This document shows positions 3,226-62,640 of a stretch of DNA of 64,000 nucleotides, one piece after another. The notes beneath the pieces were generated by a model. That model made no database searches and was not told the origin of the DNA. It saw only the letters and a program-made list of their open reading frames with translations. The stretch comes from an uncultured bacterium. GTDB lineage: Bacteria > Patescibacteriota > JABMPQ01 > CAVVCK01. The stretch covers positions 147,050 to 211,049 of the forward strand of contig CAVVCK010000001.1 in assembly GCA_963746775.1 (NCBI GenBank), written 5' to 3'. Every line of letters starts with the position of its first letter. The stretch's first letter is position 1. The position numbers were made by a program, and so were the translations under genes.

Positions 3226-4395
3226 TCACACCACTATTCTCAAAATCCTCGGATTAATTCTCGTTAAAACTTCATAATTAATCGTTCCAATTTTTGCAGC
3301 CATCTCTTCAGCTGTAATTTCTTCTATGCCTTGCTCACCAATTATTACCACTTCATCTTCCAGACTTATATCTTTAATGTGGTTAACATCTACCACAATC
3401 ATATTCATACAAACCCTGCCCAATACTTTGCATTTCTGGCCTCCTATCAATACATTGCCAACGCTTGATAACCCTCTATCAAATCCATCCCAATAGCCAA
3501 TAGGCAAAACAGCTATTTTAGTATCCTGAGTAACCTTCTCTGTAATTCCATAACTTACTGGTGTTCCTGCTTTAATTGTTTTTATCTGAGCAACAACAGT
3601 TTTCCAAGATAATACTGGCTTTAATTCTAACTTTCTTCCCCGTTCTTTGGCTGATACCTGCGTTTCTTTTGATGACCAATGACCATACATTGATATACCT
3701 AATCTTACCATATCAAAATATGTTTCGGGAAATAATACCGTAGCAGCTGAACAAGCTGTATGCTTAATGGGTACTTCAAAACCACTATCTTCTAATAATT
3801 TAATTATTTTATTATATTCTTTAAGCTGCCCTCTGGCATAAGAATGATCGGTCGTATCTTCTATATTAGCATAATGCGTTGATATGCCCTCTATTTTTAT
3901 ATTTTTAAATTTATTTATAAATTTTACAAAACTCAATATATTTTTTTCCAAAACCCCTTGTCTAGATGTTCCGGTTTCAACTTTAATATGCACATTTACT
4001 TTTTTATTTTTTAAATTTGGGATTTTGAGATTTGTTATTTTACCAAGTTCTTCAATCGTTTCCTTATTATAAACAACCTGTCTAAATCCATTCTCCACAA
4101 CTTCACGAAGTCGAGATTTTAGAGTATATCCTAATATTAAGATTGGCAGTTCTAGACCATTTTTCTTTAATTCCAAAGCTTCATCAATAGAATCCACTCC
4201 AATCCAATTAGCTTCGCTTTCCTGCGCAACTTTAGCTATTTCTACTAATCCGTGTCCATAAGCATTAGATTTTACCACTGCCATTAATTTTCTCTTTTTG
4301 CCTATTAAATTTCTAAATTGGCTTAAATTACTTTTTAAGTTTTTTTCACTAATTTCAACCCAAGTTTTATAGTTTTTCACTTTTTCCATAGACAT
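3226..4395 (-). CDS. alr: Alanine racemase
   Basis: PLP-binding motif AVVKSNAYGHG near the N-terminus; 389 aa; adjacent to murI. Confidence 0.9.
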   Translation of the reverse strand: MSMEKVKNYKTWVEISEKNLKSNLSQFRNLIGKKRKLMAVVKSNAYGHGLVEIAKVAQESEANWIGVDSIDEALELKKNGLELPILILGYTLKSRLREVVENGFRQVVYNKETIEELGKITNLKIPNLKNKKVNVHIKVETGTSRQGVLEKNILSFVKFINKFKNIKIEGISTHYANIEDTTDHSYARGQLKEYNKIIKLLEDSGFEVPIKHTACSAATVLFPETYFDMVRLGISMYGHWSSKETQVSAKERGRKLELKPVLSWKTVVAQIKTIKAGTPVSYGITEKVTQDTKIAVLPIGYWDGFDRGLSSVGNVLIGGQKCKVLGRVCMNMIVVDVNHIKDISLEDEVVIIGEQGIEEITAEEMAAKIGTINYEVLTRINPRILRIVV

Positions 4396-4459
4396 TATTA
4401 TAAAATAAAACCAAGATTATCTCGGTTTTACCTATGTTTTAAATATATTATCATTATAC

Positions 4460-5770
4460 TCACTTTTTAATCATTTTCAACCCTCCCATATAATTCTGTA
4501 AAACTTCAGGAATTTCAATACTTCCATCTTCTTTTTGATAATTCTCTAAAATAGCAATTAAAGTCCTACCAATAGCAAAAGCAGTCGCATCATTCATGTG
4601 AACAAATTTTTTATTCTTGTCTTTATCTATATATTTAGTACCCAGACGTCTCGCTTGATAATCAGTCATATAATCAGCCGTATGTGTTTCTCTATATTTT
4701 CCCTCGCCTGGCATATAACATTCTATATCAATCGCTCGAAAATCTGCTTTACCGCCTATATCACCGCTACATTTCAAAACAACTTGATAAGGAATTTTTA
4801 ATTGCTGCATTAAATACTCTTGGATAGCTACCAATAAATCCTGCTCTTTCAATCCATATTCTCCTTGGATAAAAGTCTCCATTTCTAATTTATCAAACTG
4901 ATGTCTACGAATTATACCTGATGTATCTTTTCCGTAGCTACCAGCTTCTCTTCTATAGGCTGTAGAATAACCAACATATCTAATAGGTAAATTATCTTCT
5001 TTTAAAATTTCACCCATATGTAGAGGACCCAAGGTATGTTCGGCACTACCAATTAACACTGAATCATCTTTCTCTAAATAGTATCTATCATCAATTGGAT
5101 CAAACCGATCCATTTTCTTCATTATCTCTGCTTTTACAATATCCGGCACAACTACGGGAATAAATGGCTTATCAAAAGGATTATTAACCTCATCTGCTAA
5201 TTCTTTTATTATTTTTTTATCCGTTAAAACACTTAATCCAAACTGAATTAAGGCAAATTGTAAAAAGACTGCACTATTAAATAAATAATTAAACCTGGAA
5301 CCAGATATTTTGGATGCTTTTTCTGTATCAATTAAACTATGTATTTCACTTAATTCCATATGATTTTTTGGTTTAAAATCATATTTCAGAATATTTCCTA
5401 CTTTTCTTAAAATTTTGTTTTCTGCCTCACTTTTCCCAAGTGGCGTATCTTCCGAAAGTAGATTGGGTATTTGATAAAGCAACTTTTGAAGTTTGCTATT
5501 TGCTTCTTCAAGTTCCGGTTCTATTTTTTTAATTTTCTCAGAAATACTTTTTGATTCATTTATTATACTTATTCGATCATTTGCACTTGCCTGATTAATT
5601 TTTTCATTAATTCCATTTCTCTGCGATCTTAATTCCTCTACTTCTTTTAAACTTATTTTATATTTTTCATCCAATTCTAAAATTTCATCAAGATTAACTT
5701 TCATATTTCTGTTCTTGATACTTTCTTCTACTTTTTTCCTATTTTCACGAATTGTATTTATATCTAACAT
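4460..5770 (-). CDS. serS: Seryl-tRNA synthetase
   Basis: N-terminal coiled-coil arm (MLDINTIRENRKKVEESIKNR..), class II core with FRRE/GSA motifs; 436 aa. Confidence 0.9.
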   Translation of the reverse strand: MLDINTIRENRKKVEESIKNRNMKVNLDEILELDEKYKISLKEVEELRSQRNGINEKINQASANDRISIINESKSISEKIKKIEPELEEANSKLQKLLYQIPNLLSEDTPLGKSEAENKILRKVGNILKYDFKPKNHMELSEIHSLIDTEKASKISGSRFNYLFNSAVFLQFALIQFGLSVLTDKKIIKELADEVNNPFDKPFIPVVVPDIVKAEIMKKMDRFDPIDDRYYLEKDDSVLIGSAEHTLGPLHMGEILKEDNLPIRYVGYSTAYRREAGSYGKDTSGIIRRHQFDKLEMETFIQGEYGLKEQDLLVAIQEYLMQQLKIPYQVVLKCSGDIGGKADFRAIDIECYMPGEGKYRETHTADYMTDYQARRLGTKYIDKDKNKKFVHMNDATAFAIGRTLIAILENYQKEDGSIEIPEVLQNYMGGLKMIKK

Positions 5771-5808: not shown

Positions 5809-7062
5809 TTATTTATTAATACTTTTTTTCTCTTTTTTCTTAATCCTGCCTTTATTTTCCTTATAATAATTAAATAAACAAACTAATATAGCCCCCATGC
5901 CAAATATTACGGCTGATATTTTAACCAAAACCCCAATAAAAGGAATCATGAATAAAATCCACAAAACAAACAGTCCTAAGATGGTAGGTAAAATTAAATT
6001 GCTATATTTCTTTTTACTTTTAGAATTAATGTATTCTAAAATTCGCTTACCTGCCCAAAGCCCCGTATATATTTTTGATACATAAAACAATACACCATAC
6101 ATCAGACCTAAAATAATAGCTAAAGGAATACCTAGAATCGTAATTGCTAATATAATAATAGCTGTAGGTGCCACTATTAATAATCCCAACCCATACAAAA
6201 AGCTTTTACCTGGTTTAGTATTTATATTATTAGCAACTTCTTCTGATTTTTTAGGAAACAATAAAATTGCTACAATGGCTACTATTAATAAAGCAAGCAC
6301 ATTATAAATCTTACCCAAAATATTACCAAACAAATTAGTTATTAATGATCTATTTTTTCTAGCTTTATCTTCCAGTTTTTCCCATTTTTTCTCACCAACT
6401 ATCATAGCTCCATCTTTTATTTCTGCCTCTTTAGGTGTCTTGTACTCTAAATTACCATCTATCTCAGCACTAGACTCAATAACAATCTTTTTACTTGCCT
6501 CACCATTCAAATTCCCGCCAATCTCTCCTAAAATTGTCATTTGCCCTACTCCAAATGTAACATTTCTTTTAACAGTTCCAGATAAATTTACCATACCTCC
6601 ACCAACTAATAAATCTCTGCCAATTTTTCCTCTCTCGCTAACATTAATCATGCCACCAGCCATCATAACATTATCTCTTACTTCTCCATCAATATTTATA
6701 GTTCCACCAGCTGCCATTAAGTCATCGGTTACTTCTCCTATTAATTCTACTGTTCCGCCAGCTACCATCAAATCTCCAAAAACTAAACCATTTATTTTTA
6801 CATCACTGCCAGCCGCAATTACATTACCATTAATATCACCGTTTATGGTCACATTAGCTGCAAATGCTTTTAAATCACCGTTAATTGTACCGTCAACTGT
6901 TATAGTTTCTCCTGTTATCACAACATCATCTTCAATTACTTCATCTTTTGAAATAGTAACAGAACTTTCTTTCAATTTTAAATTGTAAGCAAGTGTTACA
7001 CTGGGAACTAATAATAAAATAGAAAATGCAATTAATAGGAATTTTATTTTATTTTTTAGCAT
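5809..7062 (-). CDS. Membrane protein with bactofilin-like (CcmA/DUF583-type) beta-helix repeats
   Basis: N-terminal signal or anchor (MLKNKIKFLLIAFSILLLVPSVTLA), then about 8 tandem repeats of G-x-[IV]-N/G-G-D-[IVL] (e.g. TINGDINGNVIAAGSDVKINGLVFGDLMVAGGTVELIGEV...), and about 3 C-terminal transmembrane helices. Confidence 0.55.
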   Translation of the reverse strand: MLKNKIKFLLIAFSILLLVPSVTLAYNLKLKESSVTISKDEVIEDDVVITGETITVDGTINGDLKAFAANVTINGDINGNVIAAGSDVKINGLVFGDLMVAGGTVELIGEVTDDLMAAGGTINIDGEVRDNVMMAGGMINVSERGKIGRDLLVGGGMVNLSGTVKRNVTFGVGQMTILGEIGGNLNGEASKKIVIESSAEIDGNLEYKTPKEAEIKDGAMIVGEKKWEKLEDKARKNRSLITNLFGNILGKIYNVLALLIVAIVAILLFPKKSEEVANNINTKPGKSFLYGLGLLIVAPTAIIILAITILGIPLAIILGLMYGVLFYVSKIYTGLWAGKRILEYINSKSKKKYSNLILPTILGLFVLWILFMIPFIGVLVKISAVIFGMGAILVCLFNYYKENKGRIKKKEKKSINK

Positions 7063-7095: not shown

Positions 7096-7284
7096 TTATA
7101 TTGAACAGGTTTTAACCTGTATCTACAATAATTCACCTTTCCACCTATAAATAGATTTTATCCCAAGTATAGCATTAACGCAAGCAGTTAATCTCTTTTC
7201 TATTAAAATTTTACCAATTTTTAAGACTTCTTTTTCATCTTTATGGGTAATAAAAATAATTTTTATCGTAACAAGGACGATTTA
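7096..7284 (-). pseudogene. cutA: Degraded cutA (divalent-cation tolerance protein) remnant
   Basis: The minus-strand frame reads IIFITHKDEKEVLKIGKILIEKRLTACVNAILGIKSIYRWKGELL*IQVKTCSI*. This matches the CutA core EKRLAACVNLIP.ITSIYEWKGKIEED..LMMIKT. There is no start codon (the frame opens after a TAA and overlaps the 3' end of the upstream gene), an in-frame TAG, a deletion relative to CutA, and the C-terminal half is missing. Confidence 0.5.
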
Positions 7285-7670
7285 TATTTTTCAGGTTTAA
7301 AAGATCTAGCCAGAACAATTTTTGTATTCAGTTTAAATTCTTTTATCTTACTTGCTAAATCCTTAGTAAAAGAATCCTGATCATACCCAAGACATATGAC
7401 ATCAGGTTTTTCTTCTCTTACAACTCCGTAGGGATCCCCTAAATTACCTAGCCTGACTTTATTTACAAAATCTAGCTCTTTTATTTTATTTAACCTAAAT
7501 TCTTCATTATTTCTAGGATATTTACCCTTTACTTGTTTAACTGTTTCATCTCTACCAACTATTACTACCAATTCATCGCCACATTCCTTTGCTTGTTTTA
7601 AATAAAAAATATGCCCAGGATGAATAATATCGAAAGTGCCAAATGTTAAGACTTTTTTTGAATTTGACAT
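7263..7670 (-). CDS. Cytidylyltransferase-fold nucleotidyltransferase (HIGH motif); closest to archaeal-type FAD synthase RibL, alternatively TagD-like
   Basis: 135 aa. LTFGTFDIIHPGHIFYLKQAKECGDELVVIVGRDETV resembles RibL AGTFDILHPGH...ELIVIVARDETV, and CLGYDQ resembles RibL VLGPDQ. Confidence 0.55.
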   Translation of the reverse strand: MSNSKKVLTFGTFDIIHPGHIFYLKQAKECGDELVVIVGRDETVKQVKGKYPRNNEEFRLNKIKELDFVNKVRLGNLGDPYGVVREEKPDVICLGYDQDSFTKDLASKIKEFKLNTKIVLARSFKPEKYKSSLLR

Positions 7671-7703: not shown

Positions 7704-9764
7704 TCACAGCCCTATTTTATCACTTATGCTTTTCATAGCATTCAGTGATATCTCAATAAACTCATCTAAACTCAAACCAAGCTTCTCACATTCTTTTATC
7801 ACTTCTCTATTGACTTTAGCGGCAAAAGATTTGTCTTTCATTTTCTTTTTTATAGATTTCACTTTCACTAACTCTAATTTCTTATCCGGTCGAATTAAAG
7901 CTGAGGCATAAATAAGCCCAGTTACAGTTTCTCCACAGCGCAGAGCATAATCTAGCTTTGTCTTGGGTTCCTCGGCATTATTATAACCAAAATTATGAGC
8001 TTTGATAGCTTGAATTAATTCTTCAGGATAATTTTTTTCTTTTAAATATTCTTCTGCTTTTAATCCATGTTCCTTGGGTTCATTATCTCCTGTCTCCTCC
8101 CAATCCAAGTCATGCAATAATCCTGTTGCTCCCCATAATTCCTCATTTTCACCTAACTTAAAAGCTAGAGCTCTCATTATAACTTCGCTTTCTAGGCTGT
8201 GAAAAATATTTGGTTTTTGTTTTACATGCTCTTTTAATAATTCAAAAGATTTTTCTCTGGATATATCAAATTTTACATCACTTTTCATACTTTTTGCTAC
8301 ATTATTGCCATTTTTGGGTTTAAGCAGTGGAAATAAAACGCACTCCCTAATAGGTTTATCCATTAGAAAAGAAAACAGTCTCTCTGATACACCAAATCCG
8401 CAAGTAGGTGGCATACCATACTCGAGAGCTTCAACGAAATCTCTGTCATGCATTTGCGCTTCATTATCTCCTTCTTCACGAAGCTTAGTTTGCTCTTCAA
8501 ATCTTTTGGCCTGATCTAGAGGATCATTTAACTCAGAATAACCATTGCCTAATTCTGATCCAGCAATAATAGGATGAAATCTTTGGGTAAATTCAGAACT
8601 ACCTTCAGTTTTTTTAGCTAAAGGAGAAATAGCTATAGGGTCATTAATTAAAAATCCCGGACCACCTATTTGTTTGCGACAATATTTCCATAAATTATCT
8701 ATAGCCCGAGTTATGTTAAATCCTTTTTTGTCATAATTTATTTTTAATTCCCTAAGTTTTTTTTCAATTTCTTCCAAAGAGACGCTCATAATATCTACTC
8801 CTGTATATTTTTTAACTGTTTCCTTATAATCATATTCCTCCCATTTCTTTTCAAGATCAACTTCAAAACCCCTTATTTTAAATTTTAGAGTTCCGAAAGT
8901 CTCACTAGCTACATATTTAAATAATTCTTCTACTAACTCCATTCCTTGTCTGTAATCTGCATAGGCCCAATAAAATTCCATCTGAGAATAATCATTTAAA
9001 TGTTCAGCATCCATACCTTCATTTCTGAATTGCCGACCTATTTCAAAAGTCTTATCAAAACCAGCCACCATTAATCTTTTCTGCCATAATTCTCCCATTG
9101 AAATACGTAAATAAAGATCAATATCTAAGGCATCGTGATGAGTAACAAAAGGATTAGCATCAGCTCCACCAGTGGCTGCTTCTAAAACAGGAGTCTCTAC
9201 TTCCAAAAATCCTTTTTTAATTAAAAAATTTCTCATACTATTCCAAAAAATAGCTTTCTTTTGAAACATCTCCCTTAATTCCGGATTCATTAAAATATCT
9301 AAATATCTTTTCCTATATCTAGTTTCTTCGTCTTTTATTCCATGCCATTTATCAGGAAGGGGTTTTATGCTTTTAGTTAGTATATTGAAATTTGATATTT
9401 CTAAAGTTTTCTCTTCTTTTTTTGTTTTAAATAATTTACCCGACACCTGAATAAAATCTCCAATATCAAAATTTTTCAAAAATTTATACTCCTCCACACC
9501 TAAAATATCTCTTCTAAAAAGTAATTGAAATTTATTAGTACCATCAAAAATATTAGCAAAAGTAGATCCACCATGTGGACGCAGAGACATAATTCTTCCT
9601 ACTAAAGTTATATTTTTCTCTTTTAATCTATTAAAATCTAAAAACGCCTCATTACAAGACATATCCCTTTTAGCTTTGGCTGGATAAGGATTAATATTAT
9701 TTTCTTTGAAATTTTCTAATTTTTGTAGTCTTACTTTTCTTATTTCTTCCTCTTGTTTTTTCAT
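7704..9764 (-). CDS. lysS: Lysyl-tRNA synthetase (class II) fused to a C-terminal HD-domain-like extension of about 190 aa
   Basis: Class II motifs RQFRNEGMDAEH..MEFYWAY and GFGVSERLFSFLMDKPIRECVLFP. The extension after about aa 495 contains H...(27)...GLLHDLD...H...D, the spacing expected for an HD phosphohydrolase fold. Confidence 0.85.
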   Translation of the reverse strand: MKKQEEEIRKVRLQKLENFKENNINPYPAKAKRDMSCNEAFLDFNRLKEKNITLVGRIMSLRPHGGSTFANIFDGTNKFQLLFRRDILGVEEYKFLKNFDIGDFIQVSGKLFKTKKEEKTLEISNFNILTKSIKPLPDKWHGIKDEETRYRKRYLDILMNPELREMFQKKAIFWNSMRNFLIKKGFLEVETPVLEAATGGADANPFVTHHDALDIDLYLRISMGELWQKRLMVAGFDKTFEIGRQFRNEGMDAEHLNDYSQMEFYWAYADYRQGMELVEELFKYVASETFGTLKFKIRGFEVDLEKKWEEYDYKETVKKYTGVDIMSVSLEEIEKKLRELKINYDKKGFNITRAIDNLWKYCRKQIGGPGFLINDPIAISPLAKKTEGSSEFTQRFHPIIAGSELGNGYSELNDPLDQAKRFEEQTKLREEGDNEAQMHDRDFVEALEYGMPPTCGFGVSERLFSFLMDKPIRECVLFPLLKPKNGNNVAKSMKSDVKFDISREKSFELLKEHVKQKPNIFHSLESEVIMRALAFKLGENEELWGATGLLHDLDWEETGDNEPKEHGLKAEEYLKEKNYPEELIQAIKAHNFGYNNAEEPKTKLDYALRCGETVTGLIYASALIRPDKKLELVKVKSIKKKMKDKSFAAKVNREVIKECEKLGLSLDEFIEISLNAMKSISDKIGL

Positions 9765-9833: not shown

Positions 9834-10292
9834 TTATTCAATCTTTAATATTTTGTATCGTATTATTCCTCCGGGAGTTGCTACTTCTACCTTATCCCCA
9901 ACTTTTTTGTCTATTAATGCCGCTCCAATAGGTGATTCATTAGAAATTTTTCCTTCTGAAGGATTAGCCTCAGAAGCTCCAACAATTTCAAAATCCATTT
10001 TTGAATCACTAAATTTAACTTTTATTTTTGAACCAGGCCTGATGGTTTTTGATTTACCATTTTTAATTACTTCAGCATTCTTTATCTTAGTTTGCAACAT
10101 AATTATTCTTCCTTCAACAAAAGCTTGTTCTTCCTTAGCTTCAGAATATTCTGCATTTTCTGACAAGTCTCCTTGCTCTAGCGCTTTTTTAATTCTTGCG
10201 GCCATTTCTTTTCTTTTCGTATTTTTCAAAAATTCTAATTCTTCTTTTAGTTTTTTTAATCCTTCTCGACTTATAATTACTTTGTTAATCAT
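9834..10292 (-). CDS. greA: Transcription elongation factor GreA
   Basis: N-terminal coiled-coil (LKKLKEELEFLKNTKRKEMAARIKKALEQGDLSENAEY) and a C-terminal FKBP-like domain; 152 aa. Confidence 0.9.
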   Translation of the reverse strand: MINKVIISREGLKKLKEELEFLKNTKRKEMAARIKKALEQGDLSENAEYSEAKEEQAFVEGRIIMLQTKIKNAEVIKNGKSKTIRPGSKIKVKFSDSKMDFEIVGASEANPSEGKISNESPIGAALIDKKVGDKVEVATPGGIIRYKILKIE

Positions 10293-53794: not shown

Positions 53795-53834
53795 TATTGT
53801 TAATTTGGCTTATTTAAGCCTTAAAGTATACACA

Positions 53835-53907
53835 TGGGATGTACAGGATTCGAACCTGTGACCTTCTGCTTAAAAGGCAGCTGCTCTACCAACTGAGCTA
53901 ACATCCC
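53835..53907 (-). tRNA. tRNA-Lys (anticodon UUU)
   Basis: Minus strand GGGATGTTAGCTCAGTTGGTAGAGCAGCTGCCTTTTAAGCAGAAGGTCACAGGTTCGAATCCTGTACATCCCA. 7-bp acceptor stem, D-arm GCTC/GAGC, anticodon loop CTTTTAA (U33, anticodon TTT, A37), T-loop TTCGAAT, 73 nt, CCA not encoded. Confidence 0.85.
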
Positions 53908-54120
53908 ATTTTATTTCTTTTTATTAGAGCTTCTATTCTTTCTCTATTTTTCCATTTCTTAATTTGTTTCTCTCTTTTTCTAGCTTCCAATAAAGTACTA
54001 TATTCCTCAAAGTATTTTATTTTCCATGGCCGATAATTCTTTGTTGACTTAGTATTACCCTTATTATGATCGTTTAACCTATGATTAGGATTTACTGTTG
54101 ATCCAATATATATGTCGAAA

Positions 54121-59762: not shown

Positions 59763-60056
59763 GGGAATTTATTTAAATTATATCAAAGTAAAGTGAATCT
59801 GCTAGATAAAAATTATCTATTTTTTGTTTATTTTTAGGCAAAATAACCATTTTAACTTGACATTTACCCCTAAATTATGCTTGACTTTTTTGTACGGTGT
59901 TTTACAGTATAAGTGAAAAGTTGTTTAGACTTTTATTTTGAAAGATGCATATATATTTCAATTTTAAATGAATTGAAATGTAGAATGTTCCTTCAAAACT
60001 TTTTTCTGAAACACAACAACAATTCCTCTTTTAAAAGAGGGGTAGGGAGATTTACT

Positions 60057-61400
60057 ATGGAACCCAAGGTTGGCGATATCATCAATAATAAGTATGAACT
60101 GATCAGGGAACTTGGCAGCGGAAGTATGGGAGTGGTATTCCTGGCCATCCACCAGCTCTTGAGGGCTCGTGTGGCCATCAAGTTCATCAATTCAGAGTTG
60201 GTACAGAATAAGGAGGCTAGGAGACGCTTCCTTTTGGAAGCACAAATCGGGGCAGAGATTAAACACCCCGGAGTAGTGTCTGTTTCAGACATCGAGGCAA
60301 ATGGGTACATCTTCATTGTGATGGAGTACCTCGAAGGCAGGGGTCTCGATAAAATTATTAATGAAAAAGGCTGTATTGTTGAAATTGAGTTTGCTATTGA
60401 TGTAACGATACAAATCCTGCGTGCACTCCTTGTGGTGCACGAAAAAGGGATTATCCATCGTGATCTCAAACCGGAAAACATCTTCATCACAGAAGGTGGT
60501 GAAGTCAAAATTATGGATTTCGGGATCGCCAAGGCTAGATCGGCAGCCCTCGCCACTACACATGAGCTGACCAGCGTTGGGACAATCAATGGGACCCCCC
60601 ATTATATGTCCCCGGAACAGTGCTGCGGTTCAAAGAGCATCAACCATCAAACCGATATCTGGTCGGTAGGCATCATGCTCTACGAGATGCTTACGGGGTG
60701 TTTCCCCTACATAGGGGACACTTCTAGCGATATTATAAATAGAATCCTTGACGGGGGAACCAATCCCCCTAAGGCTCTAAATCCGACTATTTCAGAAGGA
60801 CTCGAAAGAGTCATTCTGAAGGCAATGGAACCGGTACCGCAAAAACGGTACCAGAGTGCCAAGGAGTTCTTGGTCGACCTCGAGAGTCTTGAAGAACATC
60901 CTGCCTATACACCTCCTCCTCCGACGCCTACGACCACCGTACACGAGGCCGAAACGGTTATCGTGCAAAAGGTCGACGACTCAGAACCAAAAAAAAAGCA
61001 CTGGAGACTTCCTGTGACAATCGCTATCGCCGTTCTGATCATCGGTGCTTTCACGGGATGGTTCATCTCTCAACCTCAACCTTCTACTGAACCTCAAGTC
61101 ACTGATCCAACTCCAACGAAAGTTGTTGAATCTACACCCGTCGCTCAAGCTCAAGCTGAACCGGAACCACCCGCTCCGCCTGAGAAAGCTACACCTCCGC
61201 CTGAACCCGAACCTCAGCCAAGCGCCGAAGCAACAGCCGAACCCACCAAGCGCGCCCCACCTCCCCGACCAGCAAAGCAGGCCACTCCCGAGCCTCGCCG
61301 CCCTCACCCCACTGTCGAAGAGGAGCCACCACCCATCATAGTGGTTCCGCAAAGGCCACCTACTCCTCCCCCCATCATCGTTCTTTCTCAAAGAAGGTAG
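60057..61400 (+). CDS. Hanks-type Ser/Thr protein kinase with TM helix and Pro-rich C-terminal extracellular tail
   Basis: GSGSMGVV (Gly loop), VAIKFI (Lys), HRDLKPENIFI, DFGIAKA, GTPHYMSPE; TM WRLPVTIAIAVLIIGAFTGWFI; P/E/T-rich tail. Start taken at ATG 60057 (RBS aGAGGGGtaGGGAG) rather than the ORF-track ATG 59913, which adds 48 AT-rich codons. Confidence 0.85.
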   Translation: MEPKVGDIINNKYELIRELGSGSMGVVFLAIHQLLRARVAIKFINSELVQNKEARRRFLLEAQIGAEIKHPGVVSVSDIEANGYIFIVMEYLEGRGLDKIINEKGCIVEIEFAIDVTIQILRALLVVHEKGIIHRDLKPENIFITEGGEVKIMDFGIAKARSAALATTHELTSVGTINGTPHYMSPEQCCGSKSINHQTDIWSVGIMLYEMLTGCFPYIGDTSSDIINRILDGGTNPPKALNPTISEGLERVILKAMEPVPQKRYQSAKEFLVDLESLEEHPAYTPPPPTPTTTVHEAETVIVQKVDDSEPKKKHWRLPVTIAIAVLIIGAFTGWFISQPQPSTEPQVTDPTPTKVVESTPVAQAQAEPEPPAPPEKATPPPEPEPQPSAEATAEPTKRAPPPRPAKQATPEPRRPHPTVEEEPPPIIVVPQRPPTPPPIIVLSQRR

Positions 61401-61601: not shown

Positions 61602-62426
61602 CTAAAAGGTGAGAAAGAGCGGTGAGGCGATGGCGAGGGGCTCCCAGTTGGAGGAGGAGTCCTCGCCTTCGGCGTGGGGTGAAGCGCGAGCGCTTCTTCT
61701 TAACCGGTAGGTCTCAACTATCAGTAGGATTGCTCCCACTGCAGCAATACCTAACCCGATAAAGAAACTCGCATCGCCCAAGTCTTGTCGCCAAGACAAA
61801 TGCGACGGATCCTCCTGGAAGCGAACATATTCCGCGATCCAGGAAGGAATACCCACGCCCACCATCCCGGCAAGCCCGATTCCGAGAAGCCCCCACCCTG
61901 CAGGCCAAAAACGGGTATGAGAAGGTGGAGGAGTGGGGAGGTAGGGGGGAGTCCCACTAAACTGAACAGGAGGAGGAATGGGCTCCTCCTCTTCAACCGG
62001 CTCAGGAGAAGTTACGCACTCCTCCTCCAAAGCCTGGATACGTCCTTGGAGATATTCCCTTAAGAACATATCCTCTGCCACCACCCTCACAAGGTCCTCA
62101 GGAGAAAAACCCTCCAAAGCCTCTTGATAAAGAGGAATGGCTTCACACCTCCTTTCTTCCCCGGCCAGCTCCAAACAAGCCGCCTGGTACTGGCGAAGAG
62201 TGGCAAGATTATTCGCCTCACCATCCCCACAAATATCAGCTGCCTCTTGGAGCGACTGGAGGACCCCCTCGATCCTCGAAGGATCCCGACAGTCAACCGG
62301 CACCTGGCCGGCCAGTCGTCGAACCTCGCTCGAAGAACAAGGATTCCTTTCCTCCTCGGCCAAAATGGCCGAGGAATTAAAGAGAACAAAAATAACCGCG
62401 AAAATAACATGCGAAATACGTTCCAT
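61602..62426 (-). CDS. Secreted Cys-containing protein with Pro-rich linker and two C-terminal TM helices (hypothetical)
   Basis: Start taken at MERISHVIFAVIFVLFNSSAILA (signal peptide), which is preceded by AAGGAGGAAGGGACA. The ORF-track start at 62474 adds 16 aa without an RBS. Region with 5 or more Cys; PPVQFSGTPPYLPTPPPS linker; TM helices GWGLLGIGLAGMVGVGI and FFIGLGIAAVGAILLIV. Confidence 0.5.
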   Translation of the reverse strand: MERISHVIFAVIFVLFNSSAILAEEERNPCSSSEVRRLAGQVPVDCRDPSRIEGVLQSLQEAADICGDGEANNLATLRQYQAACLELAGEERRCEAIPLYQEALEGFSPEDLVRVVAEDMFLREYLQGRIQALEEECVTSPEPVEEEEPIPPPVQFSGTPPYLPTPPPSHTRFWPAGWGLLGIGLAGMVGVGIPSWIAEYVRFQEDPSHLSWRQDLGDASFFIGLGIAAVGAILLIVETYRLRRSARASPHAEGEDSSSNWEPLAIASPLFLTF

Positions 62427-62640
62427 TGTCCCTTCCTCCTTGAAATTAGGGCACAATTGCCCAAAAGGGATCAATTTATAATATATATAAATAGTGATTA
62501 TGTCAAGTTTTTTTGATTTTTATTGTTTATATGATCTTTATATATATATTTATTTATAAGAAAATAATAATTAGGTATTTATCCATATTTAGACTATAAA
62601 TACACCCTTTTTTTATAAAAAAATTTATAGAAATAAAAAT

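Follow-up and report, generated by a model that had tools for sequence, protein, structure and literature searches.

Lysyl-tRNA synthetase (LysRS) and an HD-domain phosphohydrolase module are encoded as one continuous polypeptide in an uncultured bacterium of the Patescibacteria, and the pairing is kept across this group of bacteria either as one polypeptide or as overlapping genes. The gene lies at 7704..9764 on the minus strand of a 64-kb stretch of contig CAVVCK010000001.1 (64,000 nucleotides, positions 147,050 to 211,049 of the contig; hereafter the window). The open reading frame (ORF) is uninterrupted and encodes 686 aa, beginning with an ATG start codon and ending with a stop codon at 7704-7706, and the ORF listing of the window contains zero internal stops for it. 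The joining of LysRS and HD in one gene is confirmed. The reading of the attached module that is tentatively favoured here, and that falls short of an even chance, is that it serves as a tethered hydrolase of dinucleoside tetraphosphates (Np4N), including diadenosine tetraphosphate (Ap4A), or as a decapping enzyme.

A first-pass annotation of the window had described the N-terminal 490 or so residues as a class II LysRS, an assignment with which profile searches agree. An OB-fold anticodon-binding domain occupies residues 52-129 (9378..9611, minus strand; Pfam PF01336 tRNA_anti-codon, E 4.1e-12), followed by the class II aminoacylation core at residues 145-480 (8325..9332, minus strand; Pfam PF00152 tRNA-synt_2, class II D/K/N, E 3.6e-69). 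Motif 2 (fRxE) corresponds to F246-R247-N248-E249 and motif 3 (GxGxGxxR) to G456-x-G458...R462, with R247, N248, E249, G456, G458 and R462 invariant across 102 fused homologues. Among NCBIfam models, lysS_bact TIGR00499 scores 477.5 bits (cut-off 427.6) and a second lysS model, NF001756, scores 530.3 bits (cut-off 468), both over residues 6-484, and NF002821 also matches this part. Residues 6-484 are a complete class II LysRS that is apparently functional, and neither the 64-kb window nor the related loci showed a second LysRS.

The C-terminal module (residues 503-686, 184 aa; 7707..8258, minus strand) had been proposed to adopt an HD fold, and this is upheld by hidden Markov models scoring above their cut-offs, by a structural model that matches HD proteins, and by an intact set of ligands. 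Pfam HD (PF01966) matches residues 522-601 with E 6.5e-9 and 36.5 bits (gathering score 22), and the NCBIfam model HDIG (TIGR00277) scores 32.4 bits with the full protein and 35.5 bits with the tail alone, against a cut-off of 27.6. The AlphaFold2 (AF2) model of the tail is all-helical, with a mean predicted local distance difference test score (pLDDT) of 93.1 and a predicted template modelling score (pTM) of 0.88, and a Foldseek comparison of this model with the PDB returned HD proteins only, at probability 1.0. The characteristic residues run H522 ... L549-L550-H551-D552-L553-D554 ... H566 ... H590 ... E612; the H-(27)-LLHDLD-H-D motif described initially is present, save that the gap is 26 residues rather than 27 and the last acidic ligand is Glu (E612) rather than Asp. 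The predicted two-metal ligands H522, H551-D552, H566, H590 and E612, together with D554 (7929..8201, minus strand), are invariant in all 52 aligned family members. All 117 full-length fused proteins have the four His residues, 114 have D552, and 115 have Glu or Asp at the position of E612. Because this metal-ligand pattern is kept across 117 fused copies, the HD module, with its complete predicted metal site, looks catalytically active.

Conservation extends beyond the ligands. In tail numbering, to which 484 is added to obtain protein numbering, the family-invariant residues are H38, E43, W60, H67, D68, D70, H82, H106, E128, T131, G132, P142, S153, K156, K159, K161, F163, R169 and E174. The last of these residues fall around a family-specific lysine-rich motif, K634-x-K636-S637-x-K639-K640-K641-x-K643-D-K645-x-F647-A-A...R653 (7806..7865, minus strand), of which S637, K640, K643, K645, F647 and R653 do not vary in family alignment A1, and F647 and R653 are found in 117 of 117 fused proteins. 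The motif is a putative binder of a polyanion, either a polyphosphate chain or RNA.

The two halves are joined by a linker at about residues 481-502 (8259..8324, minus strand), which lacks secondary structure in the full-length model and has a pLDDT of ~64-66. In that model, made with a 102-sequence alignment, the domains have a mean pLDDT of 91 and the linker ~65, with a pTM of 0.71. The linker ranges from 14 to 70 aa (median 24) among the 117 fused homologues. Low model confidence and variable length indicate that the linker is probably a flexible tether rather than part of a fixed composite active site.

Whether the fusion might reflect faulty assembly or annotation, a sequencing error having joined two genes, was considered because an A-rich stretch lies close to the LysRS/HD junction and because public annotation sometimes splits the ORF. 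In locus L002 (JABMPQ010000039.1), for instance, the NCBI annotation calls only the final 184 aa (P0005, an HDIG protein) and leaves lysS uncalled, yet the DNA holds an uninterrupted 702-aa LysRS-HD frame at 3447-5555. Inspection of the junction DNA in the window found no stop, frameshift signature or unusual repeat. Scans for promoters and terminators around lysS-HD gave chance-level signals only, and no internal start signal was found at the junction. A missed stop or frameshift, which the first-pass annotation had named as grounds for rejecting the fusion, is excluded because more than 100 independently assembled homologues share the same continuous fused frame, and an artefact can be given almost no credence.

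A survey of LysRS architectures in related genomes, as had been recommended, revealed a widespread fusion. Among the best 120 full-length matches, 101 are complete fusions (675-745 aa, 50-88% identity), and those from other searches bring the full-length fused proteins to 117. The homologues carry the names Parcubacteria or Patescibacteria, and the assembly names of the fusion hosts include Falkowbacteria, Magasanikbacteria, Jacksonbacteria, Gribaldobacteria and Patescibacteria group; the LysRS parts are only 50-60% identical between these deeply divergent classes. The best 150 cluster representatives (clustered at 50% identity) include 14 full-length LysRS-HD proteins and at least 12 contig-truncated fragments of the same architecture. 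A protein identical to that of the window (P0121) is already public on a 547 kb contig, and fused proteins, where they have any public name, are named plainly lysine--tRNA ligase. At locus L001 (3418-5627) the fusion is broken only by an N-run, an assembly gap, at the junction. Public annotation of the fusion is incomplete or wrong, and some "standalone" HD entries from Patescibacteria in the databases may be fragments of fusions. No description of a LysRS-HD fusion, nor any link between YqeK and LysRS, was found in full-text searches of the literature, where the only HD domain of an aminoacyl-tRNA synthetase (aaRS) discussed is the degenerate one of GlyRS-beta. The fusion is seemingly undescribed as an architecture, while its sequences have long been public as lysine--tRNA ligase. 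It is chiefly through appended domains that aaRSs acquire functions beyond translation, and an attached, active-looking HD hydrolase is undescribed for any synthetase, as far as the searchable literature shows.

What the HD module might do is suggested by the side chemistry of its partner. Aminoacyl-tRNA synthetases, chiefly LysRS, make Ap4A and other Np4N when a nucleoside triphosphate (NTP) attacks the aminoacyl-adenylate (PMC13627108). The Np4A that they make feeds Np4 capping of RNA, and YqeK both hydrolyses Ap4N and removes Np4 caps (PMC13010140). In the mechanism proposed here, lysyl-AMP would react with a nucleoside triphosphate instead of tRNA to give Ap4A or another Np4N, and the HD domain would cleave that product, and perhaps also Np4 caps at the 5' ends of RNA, beside the site of synthesis. 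Cleavage would stop the build-up of alarmone and caps and would return adenine nucleotides to a scavenging-dependent cell. The tail would be a functional analogue, not an orthologue, of YqeK or of ApaH, the latter an Np4A hydrolase and decapping enzyme of unrelated metallophosphoesterase fold to which no sequence relation of the tail was found. An Np4N hydrolase is favoured because LysRS makes Np4N, because the nearest characterised relatives are Ap4A hydrolases, and because the neighbouring genes encode nucleotide hydrolases. The only LysRS-specific phosphoanhydride products are, we infer, Np4N, diadenosine triphosphate (Ap3A) and adenosine tetraphosphate (p4A), and a tether as flexible as the model predicts would suit the capture of a released product. 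There is a parallel in LysX, the mycobacterial MprF-LysRS fusion, in which a class II LysRS is likewise joined to a second enzyme handling a LysRS product; the partner in LysX is an N-terminal membrane lysyl-phosphatidylglycerol synthase, whereas here it is a C-terminal soluble phosphohydrolase. Of the coupling between Ap4A synthesis and degradation that was suggested at the outset, the covalent fusion stands; Ap4A hydrolysis remains a proposal, and the tail is not a YqeK orthologue.

YqeK (COG1713 / TIGR00488) is an HD-domain enzyme of Firmicutes that hydrolyses Ap4A/Ap4N symmetrically and removes Np4 caps, and its binuclear centre is essential for activity. One metal is bound by H21, H50 and D127 and the other by D51, H83 and H109, while the tetraphosphate is held by R18, K54 and R133 (PMC13627108). 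The tail resembles YqeK in its small size (~190 aa), predicted all-helical fold, six-ligand sequence pattern and 29-residue spacing from the first His to the HD doublet. It differs in the spacing from HD to the next His (14 residues rather than 32, with a loop shorter by ~18 residues) and in its last ligand, which is Glu (E612) where YqeK has Asp. The best match of the family profile among PDB sequences is the YqeK-type protein SP1746 (E 9e-4), which bears the name bis(5'-nucleosyl)-tetraphosphatase (symmetrical), followed by SAG1661 (E 4e-3), and both alignments span the H...HD region only. A single-sequence phmmer search of the tail against PDB sequences gave chance-level matches only. Five YqeK-family entries (SP1746, 8wmy, 2ogi, 3ccg and 2o08) are also listed by Foldseek, with template modelling (TM) scores of only 0.45-0.47 to the tail model, together with 2pq7, Ddi2 and YpgQ. 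To our knowledge, YqeK is never fused to an aaRS.

A number of observations weigh against an Np4N hydrolase, and several of them concern this same comparison. The residues that hold the tetraphosphate in YqeK, R18, K54 (in HDxxK) and R133, are without counterparts in the tail, which has N519 at the position of R18 (where family members have N or L), HD-L-D-W with an invariant Asp instead of HDxxK, and no equivalent Arg after the last ligand; the HDxD and lysine-rich motifs belong to the tail's own family and not to YqeK. In a scan of the 52 aligned family members with NCBIfam, all 52 match HDIG and all 52 match the HD region of RNase Y, 43 match PRK12703, named for the tRNA (cytidine56-2'-O)-methyltransferase Trm56, 27 match a NadD-YqeK fusion model and 26 match TIGR00295. 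YqeK proper (TIGR00488) matches only three, weakly, with a best E of 1.1e-4 that is far below equivalog level, and finds no match at E<=1 in the tail from the window; the glyS model matches one member, weakly. Judged by these profiles, the HD module is a distinct, enzymologically uncharacterised HDIG family rather than a YqeK orthologue. The modelled likeness to all solved HD proteins is weak as well (TM 0.41-0.55). The best TM score, 0.55, is to the HD domain of PgpH, and the top Foldseek match (E 1.4e-3) is the tRNA-binding HD domain of the GlyRS beta subunit. Motif scans of the 64-kb window found no Nudix, HIT or ApaH signature and no second HD paralogue, and no yqeK or apaH was seen within it; the window is ~12% of the contig and this absence is limited to it, which counts on the same side. 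The remaining points, namely tRNA-directed modules inserted into relatives of the fusion, a fusion of the HD family to an rRNA methyltransferase, and close relatives with no HD at all, are taken up below with the explanations that they favour.

PgpH, a cyclic di-AMP phosphodiesterase, and RNase Y carry HD domains of the same HDIG subgroup as the tail. Unlike them, the tail has neither the seven-transmembrane nor the KH/transmembrane context, and the likeness is at the generic domain level only. With regard to PgpH in particular, the protein has no transmembrane region, and a single His stands at position 590 rather than the HH pair of the fourth motif.

The match to GlyRS-beta raises the possibility that the HD module is a non-catalytic, tRNA-binding or regulatory appendage, since aaRSs often recruit RNA-binding appendages and GlyRS-beta is the only other well-described case of an HD domain inside an aaRS. 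In GlyRS-beta the H-D doublet has been lost (Ser393-Lys394 in Escherichia coli) and the domain serves acceptor-arm binding (PMC8464048). That domain lies within glyS, flanked by the B3 and anticodon-binding domains, whereas the tail is terminal on a flexible linker and keeps every ligand. Because the 117 fused copies and the standalone proteins alike keep the HD ligands, unlike GlyRS-beta, a purely structural or tRNA-binding role is very improbable.

Outside the fusion, the HD family consists mostly of standalone proteins of ~185 aa from anaerobes. The tail alone as query retrieved 3,506 homologues, nearly all standalone and 184-192 aa long, and when 1.84 billion cluster representatives were searched exhaustively, 2,767 relatives passed E<=1e-3, of which 976 also passed E<=1e-10. 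Among 80 species-representative genomes the hosts include Bacteroidales, Desulfovibrionales, Syntrophales, Scalindua, Elusimicrobia, Cloacimonadota, DPANN archaea and Patescibacteria. The HD gene is fused or adjacent to lysS only in the Patescibacteria loci L008, L009 and L019 and in an "archaeon" metagenome-assembled genome (MAG; L074), and no LysRS lies within 4 kb of the HD gene at the remaining loci of this set. The 146 genes that flank 78 standalone homologues include no dominant partner, and aaRS genes are rare among them; the context in Pseudodesulfovibrio indicus is uninformative. The existence of standalone homologues without aaRS linkage in other phyla suggests a diffusible small-molecule substrate. 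MoCF_biosynth (MoaB/MogA-like), MOSC and CYTH genes were counted eight, seven and three times among the 146, and roughly a tenth of standalone HD loci (among L010-L087) have MoaB/MogA-like or MOSC neighbours. A DVU_1551 NTP-transferase model of NCBIfam weakly matches 13 of the 52 family members, and with these neighbours it may point to a link with molybdenum-cofactor dinucleotide metabolism.

A different substrate might be suggested by some of the modules that relatives carry between the two halves. The architectures found include LysRS-HAD-HD with a HAD phosphatase insert (P0285), LysRS-tRNA_bind-B3/4-HD (P0342), LysRS-B3/4-HD (P0157, at 3501-6248 of L091, with the fragments P0416, P0418 and P0419) and LysRS-DUF2000-HD (P0271 and P0315), and the HD domain stays C-terminal in all of them. 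The B3/4 insert resembles the editing domain of PheRS-beta and the canavanyl-tRNA deacylase CtdA, and the tRNA_bind and B3/4 editing-like inserts are tRNA-directed modules. We know of no report of a post-transfer editing domain on a LysRS, and the B3/4 inserts may merit a study of their own. In one locus (L090) pheS-pheT lies directly upstream of lysS-HD and is a possible donor of the tRNA_bind-B3/4 insert. A literature search found no link between DUF2000 and Pth2, and a Pth2-like fold of DUF2000 is not used as evidence. At locus L080 (1539-3023) the HD domain is found C-terminal to an RsmI-type 16S rRNA 2'-O-methyltransferase (TP_methylase + RsmI_C + HD); the genome is an unclassified bacterial MAG outside the candidate phyla radiation (CPR), and this is a second fusion of the HD family to an RNA-acting enzyme. 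The E. coli apaH gene lies in a ksgA-apaG-apaH operon, a genomic link to an rRNA methyltransferase that the RsmI-HD fusion parallels, which is a lead rather than a test.

Such contexts would fit an HD module that is an RNA- or tRNA-end phosphoesterase readying tRNA-Lys for LysRS, with a 2',3'-cyclic phosphate, a 2'- or 3'-phosphate, the acceptor end or damaged tRNA-Lys as target, comparable to the HD domain of the CCA-adding enzyme. The inserts of tRNA_bind with B3/4 or of DUF2000 and the RsmI-HD fusion would be in keeping with this, as would the acceptor-arm binding of the top structural match, the family-wide matches to RNase Y and PRK12703, and the invariant lysine-rich motif, whose six or more basic residues (at least six) exceed the needs of a tetraphosphate. 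The RNase Y and PRK12703 matches, however, are no more specific than HDIG in general (E ~1e-9), the majority of the family is standalone and lacks RNA-enzyme neighbours, and there is no obvious reason for an end-repair activity reserved for tRNA-Lys alone. Neither phage nor RNA-repair contexts were found: a search of a phage collection returned four unannotated faecal contigs with no RNA-repair context, and PADLOC defence models gave no match. Action on the tRNA 3' end, the alternative first raised for this gene, draws some support from the tRNA-directed inserts and the RsmI-HD fusion; the matches include no CCA-type HD, and neither a PolyA_pol/CCA nucleotidyltransferase head nor any CCA-enzyme match was found with Pfam, NCBIfam or Foldseek. 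An end phosphoesterase is less likely than an Np4N hydrolase but a serious rival to it. Should the HD module prove to work on the ends of tRNA or other RNA, a synthetase would be shown to carry a new kind of appendage, one that conditions its substrate.

The gene order around lysS bears on the extent to which the two halves are functionally bound to each other. In loci L004 and L005 a 484-aa lysS, 70% identical to the LysRS part in the window, is followed by a 185-aa HD gene with an 8-nt overlap. In L019 and L074 lysS and HD are adjacent separate genes, and in L093 and L094, where LysRS is 68-70% identical, there is no HD at all. The absence of HD from these last two close relatives implies that the module is dispensable and can be lost. 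Thirteen related loci share the order greA - lysS/HD - variable slot - serS. The greA gene (9834..10292, minus strand in the window) is the conserved 5' neighbour of lysS-HD, assigned from its translation and from GreA Pfam domains at the matching position in L001, L002, L004, L088, L089, L091, L093 and L094, and serS (4460..5770, minus strand; Pfam Seryl_tRNA_N + tRNA-synt_2b) forms the 3' boundary of the slot and lies downstream in the 13 related loci. The slot itself holds Ham1 in L001 (5624-6217), where it overlaps the stop codon of HD, a Ham1-NUDIX fusion in L089 (6017-7045) and CYTH in L094 (4963-5553). Different Patescibacteria thus have different (poly)phosphate or nucleotide hydrolases at this place, and these genes, with the HAD domain inserted in P0285 and a single HD-Ham1 fusion (P0388), count in favour of the Np4N hydrolase. 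A CYTH gene also adjoins a standalone HD gene at three non-CPR loci.

In the window the slot is occupied by a 135-aa gene of the CTP_transf_like family (7263..7670, minus strand; adenylyl/cytidylyl-transferase fold, Pfam PF01467 E 1.5e-17, TIGR00125), which starts 33 nt past the fusion stop codon. Orthologues of 130-149 aa follow lysS-HD in L002, L003, L009, L019 and L089; the gene is present in six of 12 HD-bearing loci and also in the HD-less L094, and it often overlaps lysS or lysS-HD. Among NCBIfam models it matches the generic TIGR00125, and it is not assignable to NadD, CoaD, RibL or TagD. The gene nadD, itself a PF01467 gene, is often found beside yqeK, and the pairing of HD with a PF01467 gene at this locus recalls nadD-yqeK, with the limitation that the 135-aa member in the window is not assigned. 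A bactofilin-like protein of 417 aa (5809-7062, minus strand), which starts with a signal or transmembrane segment, continues with repeats of the bactofilin type and ends in a hydrophobic multi-pass region, lies between the nucleotidyltransferase-fold gene and serS and is absent from this position in the related loci examined.

Mixed arrangements of this kind are what would be expected if the HD module were a generic house-cleaning or salvage nucleotidase uncoupled from LysRS and fused to it harmlessly by loss of a stop codon, with NTP/dNTP, nucleoside diphosphates, cyclic or linear dinucleotides or (p)ppGpp as substrates. The coexistence of split, fused and HD-less forms among close relatives is joined by a slot that gathers Ham1, NUDIX, CYTH and nucleotidyltransferase-fold genes, by standalone homologues in unrelated neighbourhoods, by PgpH and YpgQ among the fold matches, and by the lack of any sign of a fixed inter-domain interface in the full-length model. 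An HD-Ham1 fusion (P0388) and an HD-FtsY fusion were also seen and resemble read-through events; the former was considered as a Rosetta-stone clue and discounted as a singleton. Against such an uncoupled enzyme, the lysS-HD link persists across deeply divergent classes, more than a neutral accident predicts, and it does so despite the domains inserted between the two halves. A house-cleaning nucleotidase is doubtful but likewise a serious rival.

If the favoured reading, a tethered Np4N hydrolase, holds, the HD module would represent a new hydrolase family in organisms for which neither ApaH nor YqeK is known, would show control of the alarmone at its source in ultra-small symbiotic bacteria, and would offer an easily testable system for the long debate over Ap4A as a signal or as a by-product to be cleared. 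A broader version of this claim is that the whole HD family is a further, unrecognised class of bacterial Np4N (Ap4A) hydrolases and Np4-decapping enzymes, beside ApaH, YqeK and Nudix, that has been fused to the main Ap4A synthase in Patescibacteria. This extension, which would cover ~1,000 clusters (50% identity) in Patescibacteria, DPANN, many anaerobic Bacteroidota and Desulfobacterota, is somewhat doubtful. Were it true, the fusion would be a self-limiting enzyme that both makes and destroys an alarmone, or that both caps and uncaps RNA.

The wider window has a GC content of ~30%, and nearly all of its genes share one strand, in the order MreB-MreC-MreD-PBP2-FolD-GreA-LysRS/HD-CTP_transf_like-bactofilin-like-SerRS-Alr-MurI-MraY around the fusion. 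The sole tRNA gene, a tRNA-Lys(UUU) at 53834-53908 (minus strand), lies ~44 kb from lysS, and its presence in the window is probably coincidental. Between 60000 and 62400 there is an island of 45-57% GC, against a genome GC of ~30%, in which a 495-aa ORF (59913-61400, plus strand) encodes a PknB-like Ser/Thr kinase (Pkinase, E 2.6e-54) and a 290-aa ORF (61602-62474, minus strand) is without a Pfam match; the island may have arisen by horizontal acquisition or may be an assembly chimera.

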